Shown piece by piece: positions 5,148 to 53,575 of a stretch of DNA of 64,000 nucleotides. The notes under the pieces are model-generated. The model did no database searches. It was not told where the DNA came from and saw only the letters and a list, made by a program, of their open reading frames with translations. The position numbers and the translations under genes are program-made. Where the stretch lies: positions 3,426,106-3,490,105 of the forward strand of contig NZ_LR882967.1 of NCBI RefSeq assembly GCF_904830925.1, read 5' to 3'. This stretch comes from Planktothrix pseudagardhii. Its GTDB lineage: Bacteria; Cyanobacteriota; Cyanobacteriia; Cyanobacteriales; Microcoleaceae. The first letter of the stretch is position 1, and each line of letters begins with the position of its first letter.

Positions 5148-6893
5148 ATGGGGAAAATAGAAAAAAGGGATTCAACTTTAGTAGACATACTACGGGATCA
5201 GGCCGTTGCTCAACCTAACCAAATAGCATTTAAGTTTCTTCCAAATGGAGAACAAGAATCAGATCAATTAACCTATCAAGAATTGGATCAAAAAGCCAGA
5301 GCAATTGCCTATCAACTGGGTCAGAAAATTAATCGGGGCGAAAGAGTATTATTATTATATCCACCCGGTTTAGAATTTATTAGTGCTTTTTTTGGATGTT
5401 TATATGCTGATGCGATCGCAGTTCCTGTTAATCCTCCTCGACCCAACAGACCAGCAACTCGGCTTTTAACAATCAAATCAGATTCACAAGCAACATTAGC
5501 ACTAACTACAACATCTCTATTCAGCAAACTCAAATCACAACTAACTCATTATCCCGAATTAGCAACTTTACCTTTAATAGTTAGTGATGAAATCAGTATT
5601 GATCTAGCTTCAAATTGGGAGAAATCAACAACAACAATAGATTCTTTAGCTTTTCTCCAATACACATCTGGATCGACAGGAACACCAAAAGGAGTAATGG
5701 TAACTCATGGTAATTTACTCCACAATTCGCAGTATATCAAACAAGCCTTTCAACTGACACAAGACAGTATATCGGTTAGCTGGCTACCCAGTTTTCATGA
5801 TATGGGTCTAATTGATGGAATTATTCAGCCTTTGTACACTGGATTTATGGGCGTATTGATGAAACCTGAAAGTTTTATCCAACACCCTTGGCGATGGCTA
5901 CAGGCAATTACAAACTACAAAGCAACCCACTGCGGCGGGCCTAATTTTGCCTACGATCTTTGCGTTCAGAAGATTACCAATGAACAACTTGAAACCTTCG
6001 ACCTCAGTAGCTGGGAAAGTGCTTACAGTGGTTCTGAACCCGTGCGGAGAGAAACTTTAGAGCGTTTTATTGCTAAATTTGCCCCTTGTGGTTTCCCGGC
6101 TAAGAGTTTTTATCCCTGCTATGGGATGGCTGAATCTACCTTAATGATTTCAGGGGGACTGGTTCAAGAAGAACCCATTTACTGCACCGTTGCAGCCGAC
6201 GCATTAGAGCAAAATGGGGTGACAGAAGCATCTAAAGACGTTGAAAATGTTAGACATCTCGTTGGATGTGGACGAGGTTGGCTAGATACCAAAATTGTCA
6301 TCGTTGAACCCGAATCTTTTCAGCAATGTCATTCAGGTCAAGTCGGGGAAATCTGGGTATCGGGTGAAAGTGTTGCCCAAGGCTATTGGAACCAACCGGA
6401 ACTTTCAGAACAAGCCTTTGGAGCTTATCTAGCAGATCCTCATCATGGGCCGTTTCTCCGCACTGGAGATCTAGGATTTTTGCGAGAGGGTGAGCTATTC
6501 ATCACGGGACGGATGAAAGATATGATTATTATTAGAGGTCGCAATTATTACCCCCAAGATATTGAAATAACAGTAGAAACCAGCCATCCAGCGTTGCGAG
6601 GCAATTGTTGTGCAGCTTTTGCAATAGAAAAAGATAATACAGAGCAGTTAGTCATAGTAGCTGAAGTCGAACGGACACATTTACGACATCTGAATGTCAA
6701 AGAGGTCGTAGCAGAAATCGGCGAAGCCATCATGCAGCAACATGAAATCCAGGCTTATGGCACGGTACTGATTAAAACGGGGAGTATTCCTAAAACTTCC
6801 AGTGGCAAAATTCAACGGCGTATTTGCAAAGAAAAGTTTCTGTGCGAAACTCTCAATATTGTCGGGGGAAAGATTGGAAAATCGGAGTTATAA
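5148..6893 (+). CDS. Fatty acyl-AMP ligase (FAAL, standalone adenylation enzyme).
   Basis: AMP-binding motifs YTSGSTGTPKGV and GRMKDMIIIRGRNYYPQDIE. Size and N-terminus are typical of FAAL rather than acyl-CoA synthetase. First gene of the desaturase/ACP cassette. Confidence 0.8.
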   Translation: MGKIEKRDSTLVDILRDQAVAQPNQIAFKFLPNGEQESDQLTYQELDQKARAIAYQLGQKINRGERVLLLYPPGLEFISAFFGCLYADAIAVPVNPPRPNRPATRLLTIKSDSQATLALTTTSLFSKLKSQLTHYPELATLPLIVSDEISIDLASNWEKSTTTIDSLAFLQYTSGSTGTPKGVMVTHGNLLHNSQYIKQAFQLTQDSISVSWLPSFHDMGLIDGIIQPLYTGFMGVLMKPESFIQHPWRWLQAITNYKATHCGGPNFAYDLCVQKITNEQLETFDLSSWESAYSGSEPVRRETLERFIAKFAPCGFPAKSFYPCYGMAESTLMISGGLVQEEPIYCTVAADALEQNGVTEASKDVENVRHLVGCGRGWLDTKIVIVEPESFQQCHSGQVGEIWVSGESVAQGYWNQPELSEQAFGAYLADPHHGPFLRTGDLGFLREGELFITGRMKDMIIIRGRNYYPQDIEITVETSHPALRGNCCAAFAIEKDNTEQLVIVAEVERTHLRHLNVKEVVAEIGEAIMQQHEIQAYGTVLIKTGSIPKTSSGKIQRRICKEKFLCETLNIVGGKIGKSEL

Positions 6894-7964: not shown

Positions 7965-8966
7965 TTGCACTGCCAAATTTTTGTATTGCGTCATCTATTA
8001 GGAGTTCAGAGAATGACAACACATTTCGATACTGCCATACCCAATCAGAAGACAAAGGTTATTAGCAATGACTACATTAAAGGACTGCAATATAAACATT
8101 TTTGGTGGTACAATTTCATTCCCTTTTTAGGAACAATTGTGGCGATCATTTCTCTTTTGTGGCTACCCATTGGGCCAATCGAGATCGGAATGCTGATTGT
8201 GATGTGGGCTTTGACCATGACCGGGGTGAGTGTCGGTTTTCATCGCTACTATACCCATCGTGCTTTTAAAACTCACCAGAGCATTCGGGTGATATTCGCC
8301 ATATTGGGTTCTGTAGCTGCCCAAGGGCCCTTAATTTCCTGGGTAGCCGTTCATCGTCGCCATCATGAGTGCAGTGATCTACCCGGTGATCCCCATTCCC
8401 CTAATCTTCACGGTCAGGGATTTCTCGGAACTCTCAAGGGATTATGGCATTCCCATGTTGGCTGGCTGATTGATCATGATTATCCTAATCCAACCTATTA
8501 TGCCCCTGAACTCCTGCGAGATCAAAGCATATCCAAAATTAGCCGATTGTATCTAGTTTGGGTGCTTCTGGGTCTAGCGATTCCTACTATGATCGGCGGA
8601 CTACTTCATTTGTCCCTAATAGGAGCATTGCAAGGCTTTCTTTGGGGTGGTGTTGTGCGCCTGTTTATTGTAGATAACATCATATTGAGCGTTAATTCCG
8701 TCTCTCATGTTTATGGGACTCGTGGTTTTAAGACAGGCGATCAAAGCAAGAATAACCCTTGGGTGGCTATCCCAACGTTTGGCGAGTCTTGGCAAAACAA
8801 TCACCATGCGTTTGAAAGCTCTGCTGCTATCGGTTTGAAAGGGTGGCAAATTGATATTGGTTATGCAGTAATTTGGATCTTGGAAAAATTAGGCTGGGCT
8901 TGGGATGTAAATCTGCCCACCGCCAAGATGATAGAGGCGAAAACAATTACCCTAGCTCAGGATTAA
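7965..8966 (+). CDS. Membrane fatty-acid desaturase, copy 2. Likely start at 8016 (MTTHF...).
   Basis: His boxes HRYYTH, HRRHHECSD and QNNHHAFE. An RBS-like aggag precedes the ATG at 8016. Confidence 0.8.
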   Translation: MHCQIFVLRHLLGVQRMTTHFDTAIPNQKTKVISNDYIKGLQYKHFWWYNFIPFLGTIVAIISLLWLPIGPIEIGMLIVMWALTMTGVSVGFHRYYTHRAFKTHQSIRVIFAILGSVAAQGPLISWVAVHRRHHECSDLPGDPHSPNLHGQGFLGTLKGLWHSHVGWLIDHDYPNPTYYAPELLRDQSISKISRLYLVWVLLGLAIPTMIGGLLHLSLIGALQGFLWGGVVRLFIVDNIILSVNSVSHVYGTRGFKTGDQSKNNPWVAIPTFGESWQNNHHAFESSAAIGLKGWQIDIGYAVIWILEKLGWAWDVNLPTAKMIEAKTITLAQD

Positions 8967-9003
8967 AGTCCCGACTACAAAACTTATGTAGGTTGAGCCA
9001 ACA

Positions 9004-9936
9004 ATGCAAGCAATCACAATTAAAAGCGATCGCCTGAAAAGACAACAAGAAATTCACGGCATCAGCAATCTCATCATTCCCTTAAGCGGATCTGTAGCAG
9101 CAGTAGTCCTGGCTTTTCAGATCGGTGTTAGTGCCGTAGATATCTGGCTATTGCTAATTATGTATTTTTTAACAGCGATTGGCGTAACAGTAGGGCTGCA
9201 TAGACACTTTGCCCACTGCGCCTTCGGGGCTAATCAGACGGTGAGAATTATCCTGGCTGTCCTGGGTTCTATGGCCGCAGAAGGCCCCCTCAATTATTGG
9301 GTAGCCACCCATCGCCGTCACCACAAATACAGCGATACCCCCGGAGATCCCCATTCTCCCTTTGTTAAAGAAGAGCAAAAATTGGGCTTTTTAGAAGGGG
9401 TATGGCATTCTCATGTCGGTTGGACATTCAATCATGAACTCACGAACACCTTTGTCTTTGCTAAAGACATGGTGCGAGATCCCATGCTGAACAGAATTAG
9501 CCAACTTTATTATTTGTGGCTATTTTTGGGAGTAGCGATTCCTGGTGTTATTGGTGGAGTAATCACCGGAACTTGGATGGGGGCGTTGACCGGAACATTA
9601 TGGGGCGGCTTTCTCCGTATCTTCCTTCAACACCATTTAGGTTTTTGGACGGTTGGCTCTCTGGCCCATCTCTTAGGAAATCGTCCCTTTGAGACTGACG
9701 ACTATAGCCGCAATAACCTCTGGGTTGCCTTGTTCACCTGTGGAGAATGGCACAACAACCACCATGCTTTTCCTTATGCGGCTATTCATGGTTTCCACTG
9801 GTGGCAAATCGATGTCGGTGGCTTCGTGATTCGACTACTGGAAAAGCTAGGTTTGGTTTGGGACTTGAAAATGCCTACAGCCGAAGCGATCGCCGCTAAA
9901 AAAAGAAAGGTGAGTTGTAATGAAGCCTGCAACTAG
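9004..9936 (+). CDS. Membrane fatty-acid desaturase, copy 3.
   Basis: His boxes HRHFAH, HRRHHKYSD and HNNHHAFP. Confidence 0.8.
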   Translation: MQAITIKSDRLKRQQEIHGISNLIIPLSGSVAAVVLAFQIGVSAVDIWLLLIMYFLTAIGVTVGLHRHFAHCAFGANQTVRIILAVLGSMAAEGPLNYWVATHRRHHKYSDTPGDPHSPFVKEEQKLGFLEGVWHSHVGWTFNHELTNTFVFAKDMVRDPMLNRISQLYYLWLFLGVAIPGVIGGVITGTWMGALTGTLWGGFLRIFLQHHLGFWTVGSLAHLLGNRPFETDDYSRNNLWVALFTCGEWHNNHHAFPYAAIHGFHWWQIDVGGFVIRLLEKLGLVWDLKMPTAEAIAAKKRKVSCNEACN

Positions 9937-10002
9937 CCTTCAAGTTGAGCATTAAACCCAGAAAAGCAATGATTAACCGCAATCATAAACCTAGCTGATC
10001 CA

Positions 10003-10968
10003 ATGATTACAGAGCCTCTTGTTAATCCAGACAAAAGACAAAAAACCGTCACAGCCCCTCACCTGAGAGTTCCTCAAACCATACACTTCATCTTGTTTGA
10101 AGTTGTACCTTTTTTGGGATTCATCACCGCCATTGTTTTACTATTGTTCGGAATTCCTATGACTTGGGTGGACTTAGGGCTGTTTATCAGTTTGTGGTTC
10201 TTAACTCAAATTGGCTTTACTGTGGGTTGGCATCGCCTTTTTAGCCATAATGCGTTTAAAGCTAATGTCGTTGTTAGAGTGACCTTAGCAATTCTAGGTT
10301 CTATGGCAGACCCTGGCCCCTTGCTGTTGGCAGTAGCCGCCCATCGTCGTCATCATGAATATGCCGATCAACCCGGAGATCCTCATTCTCCCCATCTTTT
10401 TGGAGAAGGAGTTACGGATCAGATCAAAGGCTTTTGGCACGCTCATGATGGCTGGTTAGCGACCAACAGAGAACACCCCAATACCATCCACTATGTTCCA
10501 GACTTACTGCGGGACAAAGCCCTAACAACAGCGAGCCGATATTATTGGCTGTGGGTGATTTTAGGACTGGTCATTCCTGCTATCCTAGGCGGTGTTTTGA
10601 CAAACTCATGGCTGGGAGCTTTTCAAGGCTTTCTTTGGGGAGGACTGGTGCGGATGTTCTTTGTCAATAACCTCATCAATGGCGTCAACTCTTTTTGTCA
10701 CGTCCTTGGCGGTCGCTCCTTTAATACCCCTGATCACAGCCGGAACAATCTCTGGCTGGCTCTTCCTTCCTTGGGTGAAGGATGGCACAATAGTCACCAT
10801 GCTTTTCCGCAATCAGCCATTTTTGGTTTCGACTGGTGGCAAGTTGATATCGGGGGCTGGGTTGTCCTCATTTTAGAAAAGCTGGGTTTAATTTGGGATG
10901 TCAAGATTCCTAAAGCCGATACTATCAAAGCTAAAAAAGCTTTTTTAGCAGCTAGAAAGGCAACATAG
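10003..10968 (+). CDS. Membrane fatty-acid desaturase, copy 4.
   Basis: His boxes HRLFSH, HRRHHEYAD and HNSHHAFP. Confidence 0.8.
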   Translation: MITEPLVNPDKRQKTVTAPHLRVPQTIHFILFEVVPFLGFITAIVLLLFGIPMTWVDLGLFISLWFLTQIGFTVGWHRLFSHNAFKANVVVRVTLAILGSMADPGPLLLAVAAHRRHHEYADQPGDPHSPHLFGEGVTDQIKGFWHAHDGWLATNREHPNTIHYVPDLLRDKALTTASRYYWLWVILGLVIPAILGGVLTNSWLGAFQGFLWGGLVRMFFVNNLINGVNSFCHVLGGRSFNTPDHSRNNLWLALPSLGEGWHNSHHAFPQSAIFGFDWWQVDIGGWVVLILEKLGLIWDVKIPKADTIKAKKAFLAARKAT

Positions 10969-11177
10969 CAGGATACTAAAATCTATCTCGTCTACTGTCT
11001 TAATTATGAACCTAATTTTCTTGTTTTAGAAATTTAATGTTCACTCATAAAAACCCAGAAAAAAACCCAGAAATTTAGGTTTATAATTTAGGGAAGGGAC
11101 TTTTAACGACCCAATCCATTGCTCCCATTTTTGGTGAGCAAAATTTTTATCCCAGACCCATTCAGGAAAAAATTATC

Positions 11178-11450
11178 ATGGCAATTCAAAATCAAGAAAT
11201 CGCTGTTGAAACCCACAAGAACCAATCTGCTATTCAAGGCTGGTTGGTTTCTTATATAGCCCAACTTCTGGAAATTGATCCCAAGGAAGTTGATGTTAAA
11301 GCTTCTTTTGACCGCTATGGCTTGGATTCCTCAGCGACTATTGGATTAACTAGCGATTTAGAGAACTGGTTGGGAGGTTCTATTGATCCAACCATAACCT
11401 ATGATTATCCTTCAATTGAGTCTTTATCAAAACATCTAGCTGGATCATAA
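11178..11450 (+). CDS. Standalone acyl carrier protein (PP-binding).
   Basis: 90 aa with a YGLDSS motif at the expected phosphopantetheine-attachment serine. Last gene of the FAAL-desaturase cassette. Confidence 0.7.
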   Translation: MAIQNQEIAVETHKNQSAIQGWLVSYIAQLLEIDPKEVDVKASFDRYGLDSSATIGLTSDLENWLGGSIDPTITYDYPSIESLSKHLAGS

Positions 11451-11548
11451 GCTAATTTAGTTCTGAAAAAATATTAAACCCCTTGCTATTGGCTAGGGGT
11501 TTAAAAATTAGAGATTTAAAATATTTGTAAAATTAGAAATTAACAGAT

Positions 11549-11656
11549 ATGGAAACTATTAATTTCACCGTAAACCACATAAAAGTGTCTTCAGAAAAAT
11601 CCTTTGCCCAAGTGACAATGGCTATAGAGTCAATGGTTGGTAAAGCTAAGGAATGA
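11549..11656 (+). pseudogene. N-terminal fragment (35 aa) of a DUF302-family gene, ending just before the IS.
   Basis: ATG...METINFTVNHIKVSSEKSFAQVTMAIESMVGKAKE*. Homologous to the N-terminal extension of the DUF302 ORF on the other side of the IS. Confidence 0.45.
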
Positions 11657-13045
11657 AAAATCAATAAATGGATTAATGAGTGAGTTGAGGTACGGCTCGA
11701 TAGTTCCATTTGGGTAAATATTCATCAAAAACAATTTTCAGAGTTTTTTTGAAATGATCAGTTACCTTCCGACCCGTTTGATAGACCTGATCAACGACAT
11801 TAACAACGACAGATAGCCCTGTATTAGTACGAGTTTTTTCCATGAGAGTTTTGACCAAACCAAGACTGGTAAAAATCACTCCTTGACAAGCTCGAGTTAG
11901 ATGAGGAAAAAGTCGATGTTCAATGGGATTATATTTAGATGTATAGGGAGGGTAATGAGCAATTCTGATCTCAATTCCAATTTCATCCACTAACTTTTGT
12001 AAATCTTGTTTAAAAATATAATGATTAGCATTATTACTGCCACCCCCATCACACTTAGCTAAAATCGAATTGGCATGAGGATAGAGAGCTTTTCCATAAT
12101 GATTCCACCAATGTTTAAGAGCATTACAAGCAAATTCACTGGTATCTTTACTGTTACCTAATGTTACATATCCTCGGTTTTTTTGAGTATCGTAAATGCC
12201 ATGGGGAATGACTTTTCCATGACCTAAGCTCCAAAAATCATGATCCCAAGTAGTAACAGGCTCAGTTGTATACAGAGTACCTGGACGATATAAATTCCCT
12301 AAAACTTCTTTCTTTTTAGTGTCAAAACTAATAATAGGATTACCGGCTTCTCTATACAGGGTATCGAGTCTAGCAATATTTTCAAATTGAGCATTTCGGT
12401 CTTTATTAATTCCTGTAGTTTGCTTTTTTTGTGCTTTTCGCTTGACATACCCATGCTTTTTTAAGAGTTTCTTTACGGTGGGAGGACTGATATTAAATCC
12501 GGCTTCCTTAAGTCCCAAAGCAATTTCTTTGTGGGTTAAATTAGTCCATTTAATTGACTCGTTCATAGGATCTCCGGCTGTGCGGGACTTTAACACTTCT
12601 AAAAAGGCTTCATCTATTCCAATTTGGGTGGAAAAAATACTTTTTCTTCCTCCTCCTTTTTTTCTAATTCTTACATCATTAATAGTCTGTTCATCCAGTT
12701 CTTTTAACTCTTTTATTCCTCGGACGATTGTGTTTCGAGTACAACCCAACAGTTTGATGATATAACTAATTCCTCCCCATCCCAGTTTTTGAGCCTCTAT
12801 CGCTGCATATCTTCTTTTATCCTTTTCTGATAAAGAGTTATAAAACTTTTTCATTTCTTCCTCAATTGAACTAGAATAAAACATAGGTTTTAAGTTAAGT
12901 TGTGTAGTTTAATCGAAAAATCCGTTGCCCGGTTCTCTCAATTTTTGTAAAATCTGCCATCAGTGCCTATACTTCATTATACCTGAAGCCCATCAAGTTA
13001 TTACTTTTTCATTCCTAATAATCTGATTTTTCAAAAGCTGATCGA
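11657..13045 (-). mobile_element. ISAzo13-family-like insertion sequence. Boundaries approximate and terminal IRs not resolved.
   Basis: Single 403-aa transposase, flanked on both sides by fragments of DUF302 genes. Confidence 0.45.
11673..12884 (-). CDS. ISAzo13-family transposase.
   Basis: 403 aa. The N-terminal HTH region (MKKFYNSLSEKDKRRYAAIEAQKLGWGGISYI) and overall architecture recall the cyanobacterial ISAzo13-like DDE transposases. Confidence 0.75.
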   Translation of the reverse strand: MFYSSSIEEEMKKFYNSLSEKDKRRYAAIEAQKLGWGGISYIIKLLGCTRNTIVRGIKELKELDEQTINDVRIRKKGGGRKSIFSTQIGIDEAFLEVLKSRTAGDPMNESIKWTNLTHKEIALGLKEAGFNISPPTVKKLLKKHGYVKRKAQKKQTTGINKDRNAQFENIARLDTLYREAGNPIISFDTKKKEVLGNLYRPGTLYTTEPVTTWDHDFWSLGHGKVIPHGIYDTQKNRGYVTLGNSKDTSEFACNALKHWWNHYGKALYPHANSILAKCDGGGSNNANHYIFKQDLQKLVDEIGIEIRIAHYPPYTSKYNPIEHRLFPHLTRACQGVIFTSLGLVKTLMEKTRTNTGLSVVVNVVDQVYQTGRKVTDHFKKTLKIVFDEYLPKWNYRAVPQLTH

Positions 13046-22735: not shown

Positions 22736-23464
22736 ATGAAAATAGTGCTGGAGAATATTCACAAATCTTACCGTAAACGCACCGTTGTCAGTCGAGTTAA
22801 TCTCTCCGTTTCTCAAGGGGAAATTGTGGGATTATTAGGGCCAAATGGTGCCGGAAAAACCACGACATTTTATATTGCAACGGGGTTAGAAAAACCAACC
22901 CAAGGAAATGTTTATCTCAATGAACTTGATATTACCCATTTACCCATTCATCAACGCGCCCGGTTAGGCATTGGTTATTTAACTCAACAAGCCAGTATTT
23001 TTCGCCATCTCAGTGTCAGGGATAATATTTTATTGGTTTTGCAGGAAACTCGTGTTCCGCGTCATTTATGGCAAAAACGTCTGCATACTCTGTTGCGGGA
23101 GTTTCGTTTAGAAAAAGTTGCCTCCACTTTAGGCTATCAAGTTTCTGGAGGAGAACGACGACGCACAGAATTAGCTCGTTCCTTAGCGGCGGGGTTAGAA
23201 TTGCCTCAGTTTTTACTCTTAGATGAACCCTTTGCCGGAGTTGACCCGATTGCGGTTTCTGAAATTCAAGAAATCGTCGCTCAATTACGCACTCGCAATC
23301 TGGGAATCTTAATTACGGATCATAACGTCCGAGAAACCTTAGCGATTACAGACCGAGCCTATATTATGCGGGATGGACAAATTTTTGCATCGGGAACCGC
23401 CGAAGAACTCTACAATAATCCCCTAGTGCGGCAGTATTATCTTGGTGACAGTTTTCAACTATGA
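22736..23464 (+). CDS. lptB: LPS export ABC transporter ATP-binding protein LptB.
   Basis: Walker A GPNGAGKTT, signature VSGGERRR and Walker B LLLDEPFAGVD. 242 aa. Confidence 0.85.
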   Translation: MKIVLENIHKSYRKRTVVSRVNLSVSQGEIVGLLGPNGAGKTTTFYIATGLEKPTQGNVYLNELDITHLPIHQRARLGIGYLTQQASIFRHLSVRDNILLVLQETRVPRHLWQKRLHTLLREFRLEKVASTLGYQVSGGERRRTELARSLAAGLELPQFLLLDEPFAGVDPIAVSEIQEIVAQLRTRNLGILITDHNVRETLAITDRAYIMRDGQIFASGTAEELYNNPLVRQYYLGDSFQL

Positions 23465-24639
23465 AAATTACTCTTTTTAAACCGTTGGGTTCAGGTAAAA
23501 TTTTCCTGCCCTATCTCTCAATTTTAGATCGATATTTAATCCAAGAAATCATTCCGCCCTTTGTCTTTGGAGTCGGATTATTTAGCTCCGTTGCCCTCAC
23601 GGTGGGAACGGTTTTTGACCTAGTTCGACAAGTGGCAGAATCGGGGATGGCGGTTTCCATTGCTGTTCAGATTTTTCTCTTAAAAATGCCGGAATTCATC
23701 GTTTTAGCCTTTCCGATGGCGATGATTTTAAGTGCATTAATGGTTTATGGCCGTTTATCCAGTGATAGTGAATTAATTGCTCTCAGAAGTTGTGGAATTA
23801 GTTTATATCGGTTACTAATACCAACTTTAATCTTTAGTTTTTTGATTACAGGTTTAACGTTTGCGTTTAATGAAGTGATTGTTCCGGCTGCTAATTATCA
23901 AGCCTCTGTCACCTATGAACAAGCGTTAAATGAAGGCAACCTTCCCATTCAGGAAGATAATATTTTTTATCCCGAATATGAGAAAATAAAAATTGAAGGA
24001 ACAGATAAAAAATTTAGTCGCTTAGTGCGATTGTTTTATGCTGAAAAATTTGATCGCGGTCAAATGTTGGAAGTGACGATTTTAGATCGTTCTCAACCGG
24101 AATTAACTCAAATTATTTCTTCCAAATCTGCCAATTGGAATTTCGCCCAAAATACTTGGGATTTCTTTAATGGTACGGTGTATATTGTTAATCCCGATGG
24201 TTCTTATCGTAATATTGTTCGATTTGATCATAAACAGCTTAAACTCTCTCGCACTCCAATGGATTTAGCGTCCAAAAAACGAGATTTTGATGAGATGAAT
24301 ATTGCTCAAGCTCAAGATTATTTAAAGTTAATGAAATTGAGCGGTGATCAACAAAGAATTGTTAAAACCAAGGTTAGAATTCAACAAAAATATGCTCTCC
24401 CATTCTCCTGTGTAGTCTTTGCGTTATTGGGGGTAGCATTAGGCAGTAGACCCCAAAGTACCAGCCGAGCGACCAGTTTCGGGATTAGCGTTATCGTGAT
24501 TTTCGGATATTATTTACTCTCGTTTATCACCGGAGCCTTGGGTCAAAAAGAAATTCTCACTCCCTTTTTCGCGGCTTGGTTGCCAACATTTTTAGGTATT
24601 GGAATTGCAAGTTTTTTATTAGTTCGTGCTTCTAAGTAG
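23461..24639 (+). CDS. LptF/LptG-family permease (YjgP/YjgQ).
   Basis: 392 aa with 6 TM and a central periplasmic insert. Translationally coupled to lptB by a 4-nt overlap. Confidence 0.75.
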   Translation: MKITLFKPLGSGKIFLPYLSILDRYLIQEIIPPFVFGVGLFSSVALTVGTVFDLVRQVAESGMAVSIAVQIFLLKMPEFIVLAFPMAMILSALMVYGRLSSDSELIALRSCGISLYRLLIPTLIFSFLITGLTFAFNEVIVPAANYQASVTYEQALNEGNLPIQEDNIFYPEYEKIKIEGTDKKFSRLVRLFYAEKFDRGQMLEVTILDRSQPELTQIISSKSANWNFAQNTWDFFNGTVYIVNPDGSYRNIVRFDHKQLKLSRTPMDLASKKRDFDEMNIAQAQDYLKLMKLSGDQQRIVKTKVRIQQKYALPFSCVVFALLGVALGSRPQSTSRATSFGISVIVIFGYYLLSFITGALGQKEILTPFFAAWLPTFLGIGIASFLLVRASK

Positions 24640-24662
24640 AAACATGATGCTGATCTCCAAAT

Positions 24663-25271
24663 TTACAACCATAACCTTTGCAACTCCCTACAAGCATAAC
24701 GTAGAGAAGGCAAAGCAATAGCATCGACTCCTTGAGGACATATTTCTCTAGCCAATATTCTAGCTGATCTTTCCGCTAATTCAATCCTCTCTTCTGGACT
24801 CATTGTTTTATCTTTATAATCAGTCATCTCATCACAGTGATGACTTGACGGATAGCTATTAATATAACGAAACCACGTTTCAATATTTCGAGCTGGTACA
24901 AAAATAGCAACTTTATCACCAGATTTTCGAGGATCTTGGTTTAACTTACCTGCTGTTTCGTCTAATGCTATATGTAAAGAACGCATTCTATGAGATAGGG
25001 TATCGTTATCAGCATCAATCATCACTACTACAGCAATATTTCTATAGTTACGACTTCTATAACTGTTAATAAGCTTTGGATAATACCTGACAATCAAAGC
25101 ATTGTTATTCTTAATTGTTTGCCCTTTAGGATTGCCAAAGTCTTTAATTTTGCGCTTGTTAAATCCCCGACAGATCAAATATTCTCTAATAAATCGCTCT
25201 TGGTCAATATCTTCACAGAGAATAGTTACTTCTGGTAAATCATAATATCTACTCGTCATAAATCCATCCAA
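24663..25271 (-). CDS. Small TOPRIM-like (DUF4276-like) putative nuclease partner of the upstream ATPase.
   Basis: 202 aa. An N-terminal strand carries a conserved Glu (VTILCEDIDQE), then a DxD motif (VVVMIDADND), as in OLD/TOPRIM-clan domains. Overlaps the ATPase gene 3' end. AT-rich. Confidence 0.5.
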   Translation of the reverse strand: MDGFMTSRYYDLPEVTILCEDIDQERFIREYLICRGFNKRKIKDFGNPKGQTIKNNNALIVRYYPKLINSYRSRNYRNIAVVVMIDADNDTLSHRMRSLHIALDETAGKLNQDPRKSGDKVAIFVPARNIETWFRYINSYPSSHHCDEMTDYKDKTMSPEERIELAERSARILAREICPQGVDAIALPSLRYACRELQRLWL

Positions 25272-26415
25272 GTTCTATAAGTTTAGCAACTGATAAACCT
25301 TCTTTATTATCAGTAATTCGCTGTACGCGGACAGTTTCATTATCTTCTCGTTCAAACCAATAACCTGAATTGCTTGCTAAGTAATTAATTAATGATGGGT
25401 GATGAGAAATTAACATTACTTGTGCTTCATTGTTAACACAATACTCCATCACCTGATCCCACCAAGGTCTTATTTCCGGTAAAGCTAGGAAATTTTCGGG
25501 TTCATCAATACACAACGTAAAATTCTCATCAGGAGAACAATATATTAAGGTATATAGCGCAATCAAAACTTTTTGACCTTGCGATAATTCATTAAGTCGA
25601 TAAGTAGTTTTGCTAGGACGGGTAAAAGATGCTGATAAAATCCTAACATCACCAGATTTAGGATTTTGAAATGAATCAAATCCCTTGATAATATTTTGTA
25701 ATTCCAGCGTTAGTTTAAGTATTTTACCTTGAGATTCCTGAGATAAATAGCTGTACCAAGCTGCATAGTTTGACATATCCCAAGTCGGCAAACTTGCCTC
25801 CTGACGGCTTTCTGATTCCATGACAAAAGGGTTGATCTCGACAATAAAAAAGTTAGCAATCCTTTTTTTGAACCAGGTCAGCTTTTGATTGTCAGGTCTT
25901 TCATAAATAAAACCAATACCAGAACGCGACCAATCAAAAAACGGTAAAAAAGCACCTTCACGATTAGGATCGTCATTATAAAGCCTAGCTTGACCTACAG
26001 GCATACCTCTATCGCCCGCATCAACCCAGAAATTAAATAGAGGTTGTCCGTCAAAAGTTAAGCTTTCTAGTCGCATTCTAGGAGGTGCATACTCTCCTTG
26101 ATGTTCGATCTCTAGGGTATATTTATAAATGCCACCATTTCCTTGAATATCCAATTCAAATTTTTGAATCTGGGATTTTTGCCATCTTGTTAAATCATTG
26201 TTTTTAAACAAATCTGATACTTTATAATCTTGTTGGAAAGCTTGATCACCTATAATAAATTTTTGTAGTTTTCTTAAAACATCAAAAACAGTAGTTTTTC
26301 CCGAACCATTTGAACCTAGAAAGAGATTTAAGCTATCTAATGTCAATTCAAAATTGACTAGGCATCTAAAGTTATTAACATAGATCCGCGTCAGCATATT
26401 TTTTGTGATTAGCAA
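25249..26415 (-). CDS. ABC-type (AAA_21/AAA_15-like) ATPase, OLD/PARIS-AriA-like. Probable real start is the ATG at 26397.
   Basis: Walker A GSNGSGKTT, ABC signature-like LSQGQK, Walker B LCIDEPE and H-loop ISHHP. AT-rich relative to flanks. Confidence 0.75.
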   Translation of the reverse strand: MLITKNMLTRIYVNNFRCLVNFELTLDSLNLFLGSNGSGKTTVFDVLRKLQKFIIGDQAFQQDYKVSDLFKNNDLTRWQKSQIQKFELDIQGNGGIYKYTLEIEHQGEYAPPRMRLESLTFDGQPLFNFWVDAGDRGMPVGQARLYNDDPNREGAFLPFFDWSRSGIGFIYERPDNQKLTWFKKRIANFFIVEINPFVMESESRQEASLPTWDMSNYAAWYSYLSQESQGKILKLTLELQNIIKGFDSFQNPKSGDVRILSASFTRPSKTTYRLNELSQGQKVLIALYTLIYCSPDENFTLCIDEPENFLALPEIRPWWDQVMEYCVNNEAQVMLISHHPSLINYLASNSGYWFEREDNETVRVQRITDNKEGLSVAKLIELGWIYDE

Positions 26416-26588
26416 TTATCATAAATGATCTTTATCATTCTTATTATCCCATAAATCAGGAATTAAATCACACCAAAGTAAAATTTCAGGTTTTAAAGTT
26501 AGAGAAGTTAAAGATTGACAGCAAAACTTTAGCCCACTGCCCCAGAGTGCGACGCTGATTTTAACGCTATCATCCATTTAATTAGTAA

Positions 26589-27794
26589 CTAAGGATTGGC
26601 AAACGTATTAATTTCCCCCCCTCCAATATAACGACCCGGAACACGATTGGGAACAGAAAAATTAGGTTGGGTTTGACCGATTTGACCCGGTTGTAGGTTG
26701 GGATTCATATTACTGGGGGTCATGTAACTATTCGGTTGAACGGGTTGAACCGTGCTGTAACTCCCTGTATTCGGCGTGACGGAATAGGAGGGTGCAGTGT
26801 TATTTATCGGAAGTGAATTGAGGTTAGAATATCCAGGGTTGGGGGCTGTTCCAGGTGTTACTGTGGGCACGGTAGGAACAACCGGAGGCAGGGTCACGTT
26901 GGTTTGGTAGGGATTTGGAGCGGGAAGGGGAACTGTACCCACCACAGGATTAGTATTGGCTCTGGGAACACTCCAACTCGGTTGAATCGCCTGTCCTGTA
27001 ATGGTGGGAGTAGCTGTAAAGGGTGTCACACCTACTGGTGTTCCTGAGAGGGGATTTAACGCGGCGTTGGGATTTGTTAGGGTATTTGGTGAAAGTGTTG
27101 ATGGCTTGGTTTCTTGGACTTCTGAGGTTGGTGAGGATTCAGTCGCCGTGTTAGACGGTACAGCCAGATCTTTATTTTCGGTCTGCTGGGTTTGCAGATA
27201 GTTCTGCATCGCTTGTTGTAAAGCCGTGGTTGTCGTTTGGGGGTTGGTTGTTTCTGCGGATTGATTTAAACCGATGTTAGGATTGGACTCGGTGGAAGTT
27301 GAAGGATTACCAGAAACTGAATTCAGATTGTTAACAGGAGTTGAAGTATTCCCCTGTACCGATATTGAGGGTTGAGTTTTGGGGGCTGATTCTGAGAGGA
27401 TAGCGTCTACGAGAGGATTGGAATTCGAGGAGGATTCCGGCTTTTTAGCAGCTTCCTGAGCTTGTTTAAATAAGTCTGTTCCGAGTGAAATCGTTGTATT
27501 TAAAGGTGCAAGGAATGAATTATTGTGATTTAACTCATCTAATAACACTTTAGAACTATCAATATCCGCCGCAATTGATTGTTCTTCTGGGGTAAGTTGA
27601 CTCGCGGAGTTACCAGAATCAAGGGTTGATTCTTGATCCAAACTAAACCATTCGGGGTGTTCGGAAAACTGCCAAAAGAAAATTCCCACCACCACCACCA
27701 CACTGACAGAACCCCAAATACGAGGTTGTAAAAGAAACTGCAATTCTTCTCCCACAGTACGAATCAATTCAGGAAGTCGTTTATAAATAGACAT
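26589..27794 (-). CDS. Hypothetical membrane-anchored Pro/Thr/Asn-rich low-complexity protein.
   Basis: One N-terminal TM (IWGSVSVVVVVGIFFW), then a 300-aa compositionally biased region. No recognisable domain. Confidence 0.45.
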   Translation of the reverse strand: MSIYKRLPELIRTVGEELQFLLQPRIWGSVSVVVVVGIFFWQFSEHPEWFSLDQESTLDSGNSASQLTPEEQSIAADIDSSKVLLDELNHNNSFLAPLNTTISLGTDLFKQAQEAAKKPESSSNSNPLVDAILSESAPKTQPSISVQGNTSTPVNNLNSVSGNPSTSTESNPNIGLNQSAETTNPQTTTTALQQAMQNYLQTQQTENKDLAVPSNTATESSPTSEVQETKPSTLSPNTLTNPNAALNPLSGTPVGVTPFTATPTITGQAIQPSWSVPRANTNPVVGTVPLPAPNPYQTNVTLPPVVPTVPTVTPGTAPNPGYSNLNSLPINNTAPSYSVTPNTGSYSTVQPVQPNSYMTPSNMNPNLQPGQIGQTQPNFSVPNRVPGRYIGGGEINTFANP

Positions 27795-27828
27795 AGCTTA
27801 CAGACAGCTTATTGCTGCTTTGAAAGGA

Positions 27829-28029
27829 ACAGGGGAAGTCAGGGGATGGGGGACAAGGGGATAGGGGGATTAGGGGGACAAGGGGACAAGGGGATTAGGG
27901 GGACAAGGGGACAAGGGGATAGGGGGATTAGGGGACAAGGGGATAGGGGGATTAGGGGACAAGGTGACAAGGTGACAAGGGGACAAGGGGACAAGGGGAC
28001 AAGGGGACAAGGGGATTAGGGGGAAGTCA
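27829..28029 (+). repeat. Tandem array of about 22 G-rich octamers (GGGGACAA, GGGGATAG, GGGGATTA) bounded by GGGGAAGTCA.
   Basis: Directly visible. The array fills most of the divergent intergenic region between 26589..27794(-) and pgl(+). Confidence 0.85.
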
Positions 28030-28121
28030 ACTGTTAACTTTCAACATTGAGCTTAACTGCTGGGTGCTAAACCTCAACCGCGAACGGACAAAACCTCTTA
28101 TCATTATTGTAGCCTGTTGCT

Positions 28122-50736: not shown

Positions 50737-51906
50737 ATGAATTCTAAGAATATTCAATTATTTTCTTTTTTTTCTGGCGCAGGTTTTTTAGATTTAGGGT
50801 TTGAACATAGTGGCTTTAATGTTGCTTTTGTTAATGAAATTTACCCGCCATTTTTAGAGGCTTATTGTTACTCTCGACAAATCTTAGGAATTCCTGAACC
50901 CGAATATGGATATTTTGAGGATGATATTATTAACTTAACAGAAGGAAATCGAAAAGAGCATTTACAAGTTTTAGTTAAACAAACTCGCCAAACTTCAGAT
51001 TTAATTGGTTTTATTGCTGGCCCTCCCTGTCCTGATTTTTCTGTAGGGGGGAAAAATCGAGGTAAAAATGGTGATCAAGGAAAATTGACAGCGTGTTACG
51101 TTGAGTTAATTTGTCAGCAGCGACCCGATTTTTTTGTTTTTGAGAATGTTAAGGGGTTATGGTCTACGAAAAAACACCGAATGTTTTATGAAGAAATGAA
51201 GCGAAAACTTACGTTCAATAATTATCGTTTGACCGAACGTTTAATTAATGCCATTGAATATGGAGTTCCCCAAGATCGAGATCGACTGATCTTAATTGGT
51301 TTTCAAGAATCATTACTCAATAATATAGGTTTTGATAGCTGTTATAGTTCAGTAATTCCTGATGGCTTATTCCCGTGGAAACCACATATTATCTATCCTA
51401 GAGATCAGGTTTTCTCTTATTCCTGGCCTAAATTAGATTCATTTGTAGAAAATTCTGTTTTAGATTGTCCTCCGGGTATTCCTGAAGAATTAACGGTTGA
51501 ATATTGGTTTAGAAAAAATAATGTTGTTTTTCATCCTAACGCAGAACACTATTTTAAACCCAGAGCAGGTTTAGCTAAGTTTAGTATCATTCCTGAAGGA
51601 GATGATTGCAAAAAATCCTATAAACGTCTTCATCGATGGCGTTATTCTCCAACCGCTTGTTATGGTAATAATGAAGTTCATCTCCATCCCTATAAAATTC
51701 GCCGTATTTCAGCAGCAGAAGCACTGGCAATACAATCTTTACCTAAAGAATTTGTATTACCTTCTAAAATGAGTCTCAGTAGTATGTTTAAAACGATTGG
51801 TAATGGTGTTCCTTATTTAGCAGCTAGAGGTATCGCTGAAACGATTTTAGATTTTCTAAGCCAAAAATATTTAACCTATAAAGTTCCTAAGCTGTTGTGT
51901 ATTTAA
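50737..51906 (+). CDS. DNA (cytosine-5)-methyltransferase. The C-terminus abuts or overlaps the IS630 end.
   Basis: Motif I FSGAGFLDLGF, motif IV GPPCPDFS, motif VI FVFENVKGL and motif X GNGVP. Confidence 0.85.
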   Translation: MNSKNIQLFSFFSGAGFLDLGFEHSGFNVAFVNEIYPPFLEAYCYSRQILGIPEPEYGYFEDDIINLTEGNRKEHLQVLVKQTRQTSDLIGFIAGPPCPDFSVGGKNRGKNGDQGKLTACYVELICQQRPDFFVFENVKGLWSTKKHRMFYEEMKRKLTFNNYRLTERLINAIEYGVPQDRDRLILIGFQESLLNNIGFDSCYSSVIPDGLFPWKPHIIYPRDQVFSYSWPKLDSFVENSVLDCPPGIPEELTVEYWFRKNNVVFHPNAEHYFKPRAGLAKFSIIPEGDDCKKSYKRLHRWRYSPTACYGNNEVHLHPYKIRRISAAEALAIQSLPKEFVLPSKMSLSSMFKTIGNGVPYLAARGIAETILDFLSQKYLTYKVPKLLCI

Positions 51907-53058
51907 ACTGTGATTATAGCATTACCTTTGTTTTTAAGTTTACGTCCCCATTTAATAGATAACTGTCCTTCATTTAAAAGCTGATGTAATAAACACTCTA
52001 GCTCATCAACTGATTTAAAGAGTCGATGAGCTATATATTCTTTAGCTGAATGCCAGACTAATTCAATTAAATTATAATCTGGACTATATGCTGGAAGAAA
52101 TTCTAAATAGACATTCGGCATTTCTGCTTTAATTTTTTCTAGGTACTCTTCTTTTTTGTGAAAACTTGCATTGTCAAGAATAATCAGGATCTTAGCTCCT
52201 TTTTCTACAAATTCTTCTGCTTGATTTCCCGCTAATACCCATTCATAAATTAGCTCTTGATAAAAACTTTTTAACACTTGATAAAAATTATCTGCATTTC
52301 CTTTATCCAGAAATTCTACAAATCTTTTTTTATCCGAGTACCTCAATCCTCCCATCACATTAACTCTTCCTTTCCTCCTGTCTCCTCTAATCTGTTTCCT
52401 CTTCCCTTTTTTACACCAATTCTTTCTTTTTATCACTCTTAAATTAAATCCACTTTCATCCCAAAACCATACCTGTAATTGTTCTGGACTTTCTTTTGCT
52501 ATTTTCAAATATTCTTCTATTTTATCTTTAAATAATTTTCTTTTTTCTGGATCTCTTTTCTCTTCTAAGCTATACTTTGCCCACAAATAAACATACTTTT
52601 TTTCCTTTAATATCTTTCTCACTTGTGAACTACTTAATTTGATTCCTGTGATTTGTTCTAAATAAGTTGCCAATCTTTCTCCTGTCCATCTCCCAAATTC
52701 ATATCCTAATTCTTCCGGTTCTTTTTCTACTGTTTCTAATAATATCTCTATATATTTGTCTGTGGCTTTTCTATAATTTCCTTTCATTCTTTCATCTTTT
52801 AGGCTTTCTAATTTGTCAGGGTCTCCATGTACACACCAATAACATACTTTGTTTAATGAGCAGCCCAAAAACTTGGCAATTTCACTTTGCTTTTTACCAT
52901 CATTTAGCAATAATAAAATCAAGATTCTTTCTCGGATTTGTCCATTTTCTTCCTCTTTCAATCTTTTCTGTAGTTTCTCTACTTGCTTTTCATTTAAATG
53001 ATTTTTAGCAGGCATCTTTTGATTGATTTTTCTAAACTTGGTTTTTCATTATACCCTA
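51895..53058 (-). mobile_element. IS630-family insertion sequence. Boundaries approximate and IRs not resolved.
   Basis: Contains one Tc1/IS630-type transposase. Inserted exactly between the convergent MTase and putative nuclease genes. Confidence 0.5.
51903..53015 (-). CDS. IS630-family transposase (DDE_3).
   Basis: HTH N-terminus, then WFWDESGF, ILDNASFHK and LPAYSPDYNLIE (DDE triad context). 370 aa. Confidence 0.85.
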   Translation of the reverse strand: MPAKNHLNEKQVEKLQKRLKEEENGQIRERILILLLLNDGKKQSEIAKFLGCSLNKVCYWCVHGDPDKLESLKDERMKGNYRKATDKYIEILLETVEKEPEELGYEFGRWTGERLATYLEQITGIKLSSSQVRKILKEKKYVYLWAKYSLEEKRDPEKRKLFKDKIEEYLKIAKESPEQLQVWFWDESGFNLRVIKRKNWCKKGKRKQIRGDRRKGRVNVMGGLRYSDKKRFVEFLDKGNADNFYQVLKSFYQELIYEWVLAGNQAEEFVEKGAKILIILDNASFHKKEEYLEKIKAEMPNVYLEFLPAYSPDYNLIELVWHSAKEYIAHRLFKSVDELECLLHQLLNEGQLSIKWGRKLKNKGNAIITV

Positions 53059-53059
53059 T

Positions 53060-53575
53060 TTAGATGCTTAACAGCTTATGGTGTAAGCCTTTGTTCTCTT
53101 TAAATTCATCTTTATGAAAGAGTGCTAAAAACTTGGATGCTGCTTCTGATGATACAGTTTCCTCAGTTGATACAGTTTCCTGACTCGTTCCCTTTTTTTG
53201 TGATTTCGGTTTCTTAACAGTTTTATTAGTTTCCCCAGAACGTGCTAAGCGAAAAGGTACAAAATAGAGTTTATGAGTTGAATAGAAATCTATAGCAATT
53301 TCAGCTAAAAAGCTAGTAATTAAGAATTCATTCCATTGACCTCTACAATTATTCAGTGCACCTTGGGTTAGCTCGATTTCAGAACCTTTATAAGCTTCAT
53401 TATAAGCTGTTTTTACTTCTGCCTCTATCCAAGTGAGAATATCAATAACTGATTCATTTTTATCAATCTTATCTTTAATTTGTGGATATAGTGTTTGGTA
53501 AACCTCACTACCTTTAATTGTATATTTCGTATCCTTCTCTGTTTCTTGTTTTAAAAACCAATGTTCCTTACTCAT
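53060..53575 (-). CDS. Putative small restriction endonuclease (R gene of the C-protein-controlled R-M system).
   Basis: 171 aa. Its start overlaps the C-gene stop by 8 nt (ATGAGTAA). Possible PD-(D/E)xK-like SVIDILTWIEAEVK. The assignment rests mainly on context. Confidence 0.35.
   Translation of the reverse strand: MSKEHWFLKQETEKDTKYTIKGSEVYQTLYPQIKDKIDKNESVIDILTWIEAEVKTAYNEAYKGSEIELTQGALNNCRGQWNEFLITSFLAEIAIDFYSTHKLYFVPFRLARSGETNKTVKKPKSQKKGTSQETVSTEETVSSEAASKFLALFHKDEFKENKGLHHKLLSI

Follow-up and report, generated by a model that had tools for sequence, protein, structure and literature searches.

The best-described relatives of the locus considered here belong to HEC-01, catalogued by PADLOC as 'Hma-embedded candidate 01', in which an ABC ATPase is paired with a DUF4276-type TOPRIM protein that shares the metal site of the Burkholderia pseudomallei OLD nuclease (BpOLD) (Payne et al., bioRxiv 10.1101/2024.01.29.577857). 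One HEC-01 representative, from a cold seep, protected E. coli against at least one of the phages T4, T5, and T7 (PMC12881386), and DUF4276 has been placed in the Toprim superfamily, with Mad4 of the MADS system as a homologue (PMC12065111). Here, we analyze a 64,000-nucleotide stretch of Planktothrix pseudagardhii DNA (contig NZ_LR882967.1, positions 3,426,106 to 3,490,105; hereafter, the window), in which two overlapping minus-strand genes, A and B, encode an ABC-type ATPase and a small TOPRIM-like protein. With moderate confidence, we read the region as a module of two genes, self-contained and acquired horizontally, that belongs to the split OLD-like anti-phage kind and is of the HEC-01 type; an anti-phage role of the A-B pair is probable. 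The gene structure and coupling, the ATPase motifs, the TOPRIM-like fold of B with its conserved acidic residues, the insertion at a hotspot, the mobility of a bare cassette, and the purifying selection on both genes are established by computation. The two genes and their motifs, read from the translations, are the following:

25249..26397, minus strand: gene A, a 382-amino-acid ABC-type ATPase of the AAA_15/AAA_21 type, with its ATG at 26397
25249..26415, minus strand: longest open reading frame (ORF) of gene A in the ORF list, 388 amino acids from the TTG at 26415
26290-26316, minus strand: Walker A motif of A, GSNGSGKTT (residues 28-36)
25570-25587, minus strand: signature motif of A, LSQGQK (residues 271-276)
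25495-25515, minus strand: Walker B motif and catalytic Glu of A, LCIDEPE (residues 295-301)
25396-25410, minus strand: H-loop of A, ISHHP (residues 330-334)
24663..25259, minus strand: gene B, a 198-amino-acid TOPRIM-like (DUF4276-like) predicted metal-dependent nuclease, with its ATG at 25259
24663..25271, minus strand: longest ORF of gene B in the ORF list, 202 amino acids from the TTG at 25271
25197-25223, minus strand: motif ILCEDIDQE of B with E16 (residues 13-21)
25002-25022, minus strand: motif MIDADND of B with D82 and D84 (residues 80-86)
24870-24896, minus strand: acidic motif PARNIETWF of B with E127 and W129

An earlier, sequence-only reading of this DNA had proposed the two overlapping ORFs at their longest extents, with the four ATPase motifs in the larger product and the Glu and DxD motifs in the smaller one. 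All of these motifs are present and both genes are where that reading placed them, with starts that homologues move inward, from 388 to 382 and from 202 to 198 amino acids. The start of A at the ATG at 26397 (MLTRIYVNNF...) follows from alignment with dozens of homologues, and that of B at the ATG at 25259 (MTSR...) from homologue alignments and from the NCBI annotation of 198 amino acids; B matches the NCBI 'hypothetical protein PCC9214_02756' with 100% identity and coverage. The stop of A and the start of B overlap by 11 nucleotides (25249-25259, minus strand, ATGACGAGTAG), an arrangement that implies translational coupling.

On its sequence, A is an ABC-type (AAA_15/AAA_21) ATPase, as first proposed. 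The four motifs of the ABC ATPase superclass occur in order, and both Pfam cut-offs of this branch are exceeded, AAA_21 at E 3.5e-18 and 67.2 bits (cut-off 27) over the whole profile (1-304/304) and AAA_15 at E 1.3e-16 and 61.6 bits (cut-off 32.1). The catalytic motifs are kept in 14 diverse homologues from several phyla, together with motifs specific to the family (N-terminal RIYxxNFRC, NYxxWY, LALPEIQPW, and C-terminal GW); because the motifs of A, like those of B described below, are conserved family-wide, they are not chance occurrences. The top PADLOC match of A is HEC-01A (PDLC04182, E 2.3e-23), which aligns over protein residues 7-372 and profile positions 3-380 of 406, followed by AriA, AbiLi, mad3, GajA, PtuA, and NsnB, the ATPase type being common to all. 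BLASTP against the experimentally tested HEC-01A of Pseudomonas agarici gives 21% identity over 396 amino acids (E 3e-11), collinear from end to end. NCBIfam equivalogs (MAD3, PtuA, RecF, ABC-F, and transporters) score far under their cut-offs and align with no more than the P-loop region or the stretch of signature and Walker B (residues ~215-378). Among PDB chains, the sequence of A detects a single one, the OLD nuclease of Thermus scotoductus (TsOLD), at its ATPase N-terminus (E 3e-7).

Gene B belongs to a distinct family without any curated model. No Pfam or NCBIfam family matches it over threshold (DUF3226 at E 0.04 and DUF4276 at E 0.15 in Pfam, nothing in NCBIfam), PHROGs holds no family for it, and a profile of its family searched against all PDB sequences returns chance-level matches only (E >= 0.3). 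The family itself is large: a word-indexed search found 175 close relatives, of which the best 120 are all at least 69% identical and, where named, all come from filamentous cyanobacteria, and in an exhaustive profile search, 1,008 cluster representatives (clustering at 50% identity) reached E <= 1e-3 and 378 reached E <= 1e-10, full-length ones being ~175-200 amino acids long. Six residues (E16, D82, D84, P122, E127, and W129) are invariant across a set of 56 diverse members, the majority of which share 27-43% identity with B, and when the alignment is widened to 84 sequences, E16 and D84 are still invariant while D82, E127, and W129 are conserved in at least 90%.

We consider the assignment of B to the TOPRIM superfamily, as a DUF4276-like protein, well supported by sequence and modelling, because sequence links, motif positions, and an obligatory ABC-ATPase partner point to it when taken together. 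The TOPRIM-clan similarity that the sequence-only reading had predicted from a Glu and a DxD motif is found as sub-threshold but recurrent matches across the family, to DUF4276 (17/56 members, best E 7e-6), DUF3226 (17/56), and RloB (2/56, best E 0.005) in Pfam, and to HEC-01B (up to 45/84, best E 1e-6), PDC-M38B (14/84), mad4 (6/84), and AbiLii (1/84, E 0.0099) in PADLOC. B itself matches the HEC-01B model PDLC04200 weakly (E 2.6e-5, covering 118/218 profile positions, or 54%), with two further models at 5e-4. We assembled a canonical DUF4276 set of five sequences, comprising the tested HEC-01B and plasmid homologues of Synechocystis pSYSM, Pseudanabaena, Aeromonas, and Persicobacter; when the B family is aligned to it with hhalign, the DxD of B falls opposite DQD and NIETW opposite ELE(S/A)(W/F). 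A comparison of the B profile with the single tested HEC-01B sequence gave a non-collinear match of 37 columns at a probability of 9%, which we judged spurious.

An AlphaFold (AF2) model of B built from the 84 diverse sequences (pLDDT, for predicted local distance difference test, 84.4; predicted TM-score 0.85) replaced one from a shallow alignment, whose pLDDT was 65. It contains four beta-alpha units and, after them, a pair of long helices at the C-terminus, with strands at residues 10-15, 38-40, 75-80, and 117-120, and it places E16 at the end of beta1, D82 and D84 after beta3, and E127 after beta4. The TOPRIM superfamily is defined by a three-layer alpha/beta fold with four parallel strands, a conserved Glu closing strand 1, and a DxD past strand 3, and the model, in which strands alternate with helices, agrees with this definition. 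Both fold searches rank the TOPRIM region of BpOLD first, with weak scores (Foldseek probability 0.95, TM-score 0.39, E 0.0095, 13% identity in the structural alignment), and comparable scores go to generic alpha/beta folds, lumazine synthase among them; the fold evidence, taken alone, is thus only suggestive.

These weak scores invite a different reading of B, as a TOPRIM-like or Rossmann-like protein that is not a nuclease and instead serves as a regulatory subunit binding metal, nucleotide, or ligand, with the pair carrying out some non-nucleolytic, ATP-driven task. In its favor, non-nuclease folds score as well as BpOLD, the searches of curated families and of PDB sequences came back as described, and RecR shows that TOPRIM domains can be non-catalytic (PMC10568477). 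Against it, four acidic residues remain invariant or nearly so at 27-43% identity and occupy the positions of the TOPRIM catalytic residues, the motifs align collinearly with those of DUF4276, and Payne et al. report a metal site common to HEC-01B and BpOLD. We regard a non-nucleolytic B as improbable.

A and B travel as a unit. In 44/44 loci containing upstream DNA, drawn from Cyanobacteria, a deltaproteobacterial metagenome-assembled genome (MAG), and a Thermoguttaceae MAG, A lies directly upstream of B, two of these A copies being degraded (L026 and L039). Nearly all cyanobacterial loci that are closely related preserve the 11-nucleotide overlap (A ending at 10011 and B starting at 10001), the two Okeania loci have a spacer in its place, and distant copies (Aphanothece, the deltaproteobacterial and Thermoguttaceae MAGs, and high-GC metagenome contigs) overlap by 4-14 nucleotides. 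In every locus examined, A and B are separate ORFs with their own start and stop codons, and gene-order clustering revealed no third gene conserved across the contexts compared. Both genes are under purifying selection, with ratios of nonsynonymous to synonymous substitution (dN/dS) of 0.17-0.21 for A and, for the faster-evolving B, 0.33-0.8 when close copies are compared and 0.16-0.22 over deep divergences. Decay is occasional: B is truncated just past the NIET(W) motif in Symploca and Lyngbya copies (L033 9300-9686 and L032 10001-10405), and A of Planktothrix GU0601 is frameshifted at Walker B (L039 6895-8014), which could be a long-read sequencing error. Such decay marks the pair as dispensable.

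Judged on sequence, the nearest named class of this pair is HEC-01, related to Mad3/Mad4 of MADS, and we see in it a divergent member and not a new kind of system. As in HEC-01, an ATPase gene precedes a small TOPRIM gene with overlapping stop and start, the products are ~380-395 and ~185-200 amino acids long, A matches the HEC-01A model over its full length, and B has the three acidic motifs of canonical DUF4276 proteins in the same order. The differences are that B belongs to a family of its own, that A is only 21% identical to HEC-01A, that the window copy is not embedded in an Hma system, and that the window type resides on filamentous-cyanobacterial chromosomes, whereas canonical DUF4276 pairs are found on plasmids such as Synechocystis pSYSM. 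The pSYSM pair (Synechocystis sp. PCC 6803, 25994-27735; L052) consists of an AAA ATPase and a 'DUF4276 family protein' 39% identical to the tested HEC-01B, and it lies within a plasmid defence island with HNH endonucleases, a nucleotidyltransferase/DUF86 pair, RelE/HigA, and a Dnd-associated methyltransferase. Cyanobacteria thus carry both the canonical and the divergent form.

Other systems resemble the pair in part. MADS also joins an AAA_15/21 ATPase (Mad3) to a DUF4276-like TOPRIM partner (Mad4), and the PADLOC mad3 model matches A at E 9e-19, with mad4 found in the six B-family members noted above; however, the NCBIfam MAD3 equivalog (NF047739) reaches only 45.7 bits on A against a cut-off of 420 and covers its N-terminus only, and no methyltransferase or other MADS gene is adjacent in any locus examined, the window included. 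PARIS, a class 4 OLD-like system formed by the ABC ATPase AriA and the DUF4435 TOPRIM nuclease AriB, has the same split two-gene ATPase/TOPRIM architecture, and AriA hidden Markov models (HMMs) match A at E 4.7e-20. The top one, PDLC02980, gives exactly the alignment of Pfam AAA_21 (protein 29-344, profile 1-304/304) and is probably not specific to AriA; moreover, PARIS is often borne by phages or satellites, whereas phage and IMG/VR collections yielded no member of the window family. Identity with PARIS was rejected, B having no DUF4435 match and 198 amino acids against ~300 in AriB.

The likeness to OLD nucleases of class 1 (P2 Old and TsOLD) and class 2 (GajA and BpOLD) lies in the ATPase of TsOLD as the only PDB sequence relative of A, in the TOPRIM regions of BpOLD and TsOLD as the best structural matches of B, and in the Glu and DxD conserved in B, which fit the two-metal site of BpOLD. 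It is a remote similarity, with the domains on two polypeptides instead of one and without a UvrD/GajB partner, and a strict OLD-family nuclease (classes 1-3) was set aside, the ATPase and TOPRIM domains being unfused in all loci examined. AbiL and RloA-RloB likewise combine an AAA_15/21 ATPase with a small TOPRIM-superfamily partner, but the AbiLi HMM on A (E 5.9e-19) spans only profile positions 46-261 of 326, and this identity too was rejected, since B is not RloB- or AbiLii-like, the few matches in its family all being weak. Menshen (NsnA/NsnB/NsnC), a system of three genes in which NsnC bears a C-terminal effector, was discarded as well: its NsnB HMM matches A at E 4.4e-13, but no conserved third gene goes with the pair in any context, and B is a stand-alone protein of 198 amino acids. 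From the OLD/PARIS/AbiL-like label of the sequence-only reading, then, the split OLD-like architecture survives, and PARIS, AbiL/RloAB, and fused OLD fall away; its further remark that the pair could not be assigned and might be an uncharacterised variant overstated the novelty, since HEC-01 offers a nearest class.

The site of the module can be delimited by comparison with a relative that lacks it. The features of the insert and its edges are the following:

24663..26489, minus-strand genes: inserted segment of 1,827 bp, delimited by blastn against the empty site L046
26398..26489, minus strand: upstream non-coding part of the insert, 92 nucleotides, presumed 5' untranslated region or promoter, of which only the 7-14 nucleotides next to the ATG are common with other cassettes
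23461..24639, plus strand: LptF/LptG-family permease gene, left edge of the hotspot and outside the system (homologues carry PF03739)
26589..27794, minus strand: gene for a 401-amino-acid Pro/Thr/Asn-rich protein without a Pfam family, right edge of the hotspot and outside the system

The LptF/LptG gene is convergent with B across a 23-nucleotide spacer. In the closest Planktothrix relative (L046-L048; LptF 94% identical), the site contains neither A nor B, and the order of genes is lptA-like, lptB, lptF, a 490-bp spacer, a Pro-rich 408-amino-acid protein orthologous to the 401-amino-acid one of the window, pgl, and FHA genes. When the window is aligned to L046 by blastn, homology ends at 24662, one base from the stop codon of B, and resumes at 26490, the insert replacing 364 bp of unrelated intergenic DNA. 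A third Planktothrix lineage (L049-L051; LptF 89% identical) has at the same site a GmrSD_N (DUF262) ORF, HEPN (RiboL-PSP/MAE_28990) ORFs, and a HigB toxin gene. This empty-site comparison confirms that the A-B cassette is inserted beside lptF, at a variable hotspot that also receives defence and toxin-antitoxin genes, and bears out the horizontal insertion that the sequence-only reading had suspected. One assembly of the third lineage, Planktothrix sp. UBA8402 (whole-genome shotgun prefix DMPJ01), carries A-B on another contig (L011). In the alternative cargo itself (L049 7268-9761), the HEPN ORFs look split, and HigB is accompanied by a small partner ORF.

Within the insert, a promoter scan gave 13 matches against 8.0 +/- 2.6 in shuffled sequence, which is not beyond chance; promoter and terminator scanning was uninformative, and direct or inverted repeats flanking the window insert are of chance size only. 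The sequence-only reading had also called the pair visibly AT-rich. The difference is real, and mild in the window: the G+C content (GC) of the region is 34.7%, against a window mean of 39.7% (standard deviation 3.6), at the 6.8th percentile of same-size windows, and GC at third codon positions is 0.25-0.26 in A and B, while most neighbours lie at 0.32-0.40 and the LemA gene at 0.27. It becomes convincing only across loci, the cassette lying under its flanks in 27/27 loci by 0.017 to 0.122.

Two further stretches of the window deserve mention. Between the 401-amino-acid Pro-rich gene and a pgl-like gene, an intergenic array (27817-28046) contains ~28 tandem copies of a G-rich 8-nucleotide unit (GGGGACAA, GGGGATTA, GGGGATAG), which is probably variable because homology to relatives breaks at 27833-28041. 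The lowest GC of the window (~31.5%) is found at 50737-53575. To all appearance, this is a type II restriction-modification system in which an insertion sequence has broken the endonuclease gene and the methylase has been left as an orphan; its parts are:

50737-51906, plus strand: C-5 cytosine DNA methyltransferase
51903-53015, minus strand: DDE_3 transposase with helix-turn-helix domains, between the methyltransferase and the next ORF
53060-53575, minus strand: 171-amino-acid ORF whose match to the Cfr10I/Bse634I restriction-endonuclease profile (281 positions) is confined to positions 8-89

Beyond Planktothrix, gene-order clustering of the fetched loci places the cassette, of ~1.75 kb, in at least 10 distinct chromosomal contexts, and more distant copies (marked as such) contribute others. 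Examples of both are:

Microcoleus and Tychonema: with typA and a parA-like gene
other Microcoleus: with gidA, a PIN_3 toxin-antitoxin pair, and guaA
Coleofasciculus (L025, L029, L034, around 8300-12100): with leuC and leuD
Okeania: with an SDR and a GNAT gene
Phormidium: with dnaK and DUF4112, with a RelB-like gene
distant copy (L040 for its ABC-F neighbour): between glyS and an ABC-F gene
distant copy: in a toxin-antitoxin-rich stretch (PhdYeFM, BrnT/CopG, HEPN/MNT)
distant copy: adjoining AbiEi_4 and NERD genes
distant copy (L045 6048-11052): inside a macA-macB-FtsX operon
distant copy (L041): at the 3' end of a DUF1844 gene

At several loci, the cassette has toxin-antitoxin or defence genes as neighbours (PIN_3, RelB-like, PIN, Uma2, a toxin-antitoxin cluster, and AbiEi/NERD), and homologues of the pair do not sit consistently among housekeeping genes, the outcome on which the sequence-only reading had let its claim depend. 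A HigA/HigB-like identity for the Microcoleus neighbour clusters 2 and 12 was a guess without Pfam confirmation and was dropped. In two settings, the cassette lies within a functional operon in the same orientation, between a macB-type ABC ATPase gene and two FtsX permease genes (L045) and between leuC and leuD (L025, L029, and L034).

Across eight contexts, cassette DNA is 85-93% identical, and the identity is limited to both ORFs plus 7-44 nucleotides upstream and 0-20 downstream; homology of the window cassette to others starts 7-14 nucleotides before the ATG. The loci examined have no transposase, integrase, or terminal repeat with the cassette, and a long flanking direct repeat occurs in only 1/44, the deltaproteobacterial L041, where a perfect 122-bp repeat of the DUF1844 gene 3' end (6576-6697 and 8671-8792) brackets the cassette; it is either an insertion target duplication or an assembly artefact. 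A of the window copy is 86-91% identical to A of Microcoleus, Phormidium, or Tychonema at a synonymous divergence (dS) of 0.27-0.37, whereas named LptF orthologues (Microcoleaceae, Limnospira, Lyngbya, Kamptonema, and Okeania) reach only 60-70% identity, and this disparity indicates recent lateral transfer of the cassette. We looked for housekeeping orthologues common to the window and the cassette-bearing loci with which to calibrate the transfer and found none, so that the argument rests on the cross-genome LptF identities together with the low dS. Two short contigs binned as Metabacillus and Pedobacter MAGs (L021, 3.2 kb, and L024, 1.5 kb) carry Microcoleus-like cassettes with A 85-88% identical, most likely through binning contamination and not through cross-phylum transfer.

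Mobility of this kind could also belong to a selfish cassette, of the addiction or homing type, with no primary role in phage defence, that persists and spreads to its own advantage, whether through post-segregational killing of the toxin-antitoxin kind or through insertion into conserved loci driven by the nuclease. Such a cassette would account for a bare two-ORF unit that has no integrase, transposase, or inverted repeats, yet recurs at high DNA identity in eight unrelated contexts, for its frequent position inside or between housekeeping genes (leuC-leuD, macB ATPase/FtsX, and the DUF1844 3' end with its 122-bp duplication), and for the low dS between the window and Microcoleus copies. The junctions nevertheless have no conserved target sequence or flanking repeat, the single long direct repeat aside, bona fide defence or toxin-antitoxin genes also enter the Planktothrix hotspot, and relatives in the superfamily (OLD, Gabija, PARIS, and one HEC-01) do defend; we hold this explanation to be unlikely. 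Further still from our expectation, and very improbable in our estimate, is an autonomous mobile element of a new type, in which the ABC ATPase and the TOPRIM nuclease would drive their own movement by homing-like cleavage and repair or by some other recombinase-independent insertion. If true, it would explain the bare 1.75-kb unit at many unrelated sites, its placement inside conserved operons, and the 122-bp duplication at one copy.

The same contexts bear on a housekeeping role, either as a RecF/RecR-like repair pair or as an accessory of neighbouring ABC transport machinery (lptB/lptF here, the macB operon elsewhere). In the P-loop region, A weakly matches recF (E 1e-7) and also ABC_tran (E 6e-7), the window copy adjoins lptB/lptF, and other copies lie inside the macA-macB-FtsX operon of L045 or beside the ABC-F gene of L040. 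Yet the recF and ABC_tran matches extend over ~40 residues and fall far under their cut-offs (recF 31.5 against 172 bits), the closest relative has intact lpt genes and an empty site, most of the contexts have no transporter, and the L045 operon already has an ABC ATPase of its own. Patchy distribution, pseudogenised copies, low GC, and recent transfer point the same way, and a housekeeping role seems to us scarcely credible.

We return to the split OLD-like, HEC-01-type module as the preferred reading. By analogy with OLD (P2 Old), Gabija GajA, and PARIS AriA/AriB, we infer a complex of A and B in which B would be a two-metal nuclease effector and A a sensor or regulator that holds or licenses it, the sensor-ATPase/released-nuclease logic of PARIS being borrowed as a working model. 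A may dimerise or oligomerise through its ATP sites, and E16, D82, D84, and E127 of B would bind divalent metal and cleave nucleic acid. A phage-derived cue would then act as the trigger by altering the ATPase state of A, upon which B would cut DNA or tRNA and halt the infection, probably as abortive infection.

A set of observations weighs against this reading and tempers our confidence in it:

(i) The first HEC-01 to be tested, that of P. agarici, gave no protection in E. coli (bioRxiv 10.1101/2024.01.29.577857), a result that also favors a selfish cassette.

(ii) B scores 12.7 bits on Pfam DUF4276 (PF14103), under the 30.2-bit cut-off, whereas the tested HEC-01B scores 41.2 bits, and the best of the 56 B-family members reaches only E 7e-6.

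(iii) The hhalign alignment of the B family (84 sequences) with the five canonical DUF4276 proteins has an E-value of 5e-4 over 126 collinear columns at a probability of only 31%.

(iv) Many copies stand alone among housekeeping genes (leuC/leuD, the macB operon, and downstream of dnaK) and not in large defence islands.

(v) No relatives of B were found in plasmid and phage collections (tblastn) or in IMG/VR (pattern scan), so that a phage- or plasmid-borne origin could not be shown.

(vi) In Coleofasciculus LEGE 07092 (L026 9510-10579), A is internally deleted and B is intact, which is awkward if A must restrain a toxic B. The same copy is contrary to a classic toxin-antitoxin pair with A as antitoxin, and, as a single observation, it suggests that B is not lethal alone and that A licenses B more readily than it simply restrains it.

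The architecture of the pair is already catalogued in HEC-01 and Mad3/Mad4, and the overall picture of bacterial immunity is unchanged by it. What the locus adds to the candidate immune modules of the ABC-ATPase/TOPRIM (OLD-like) kind is a large family, the small subunit of which comprises ~1,000 clusters at 50% identity and has no current model. Its main hosts are filamentous cyanobacteria that form blooms and mats, a group in which phage defence has received little study. The minimal boundaries of the cassette, without mobility genes, raise the concrete question of how such modules move. The hotspot beside lptF, with its three states (empty, occupied by the A-B cassette, or occupied by GmrSD/HEPN and HigB), offers a clean natural experiment on the turnover of defence genes in Planktothrix.

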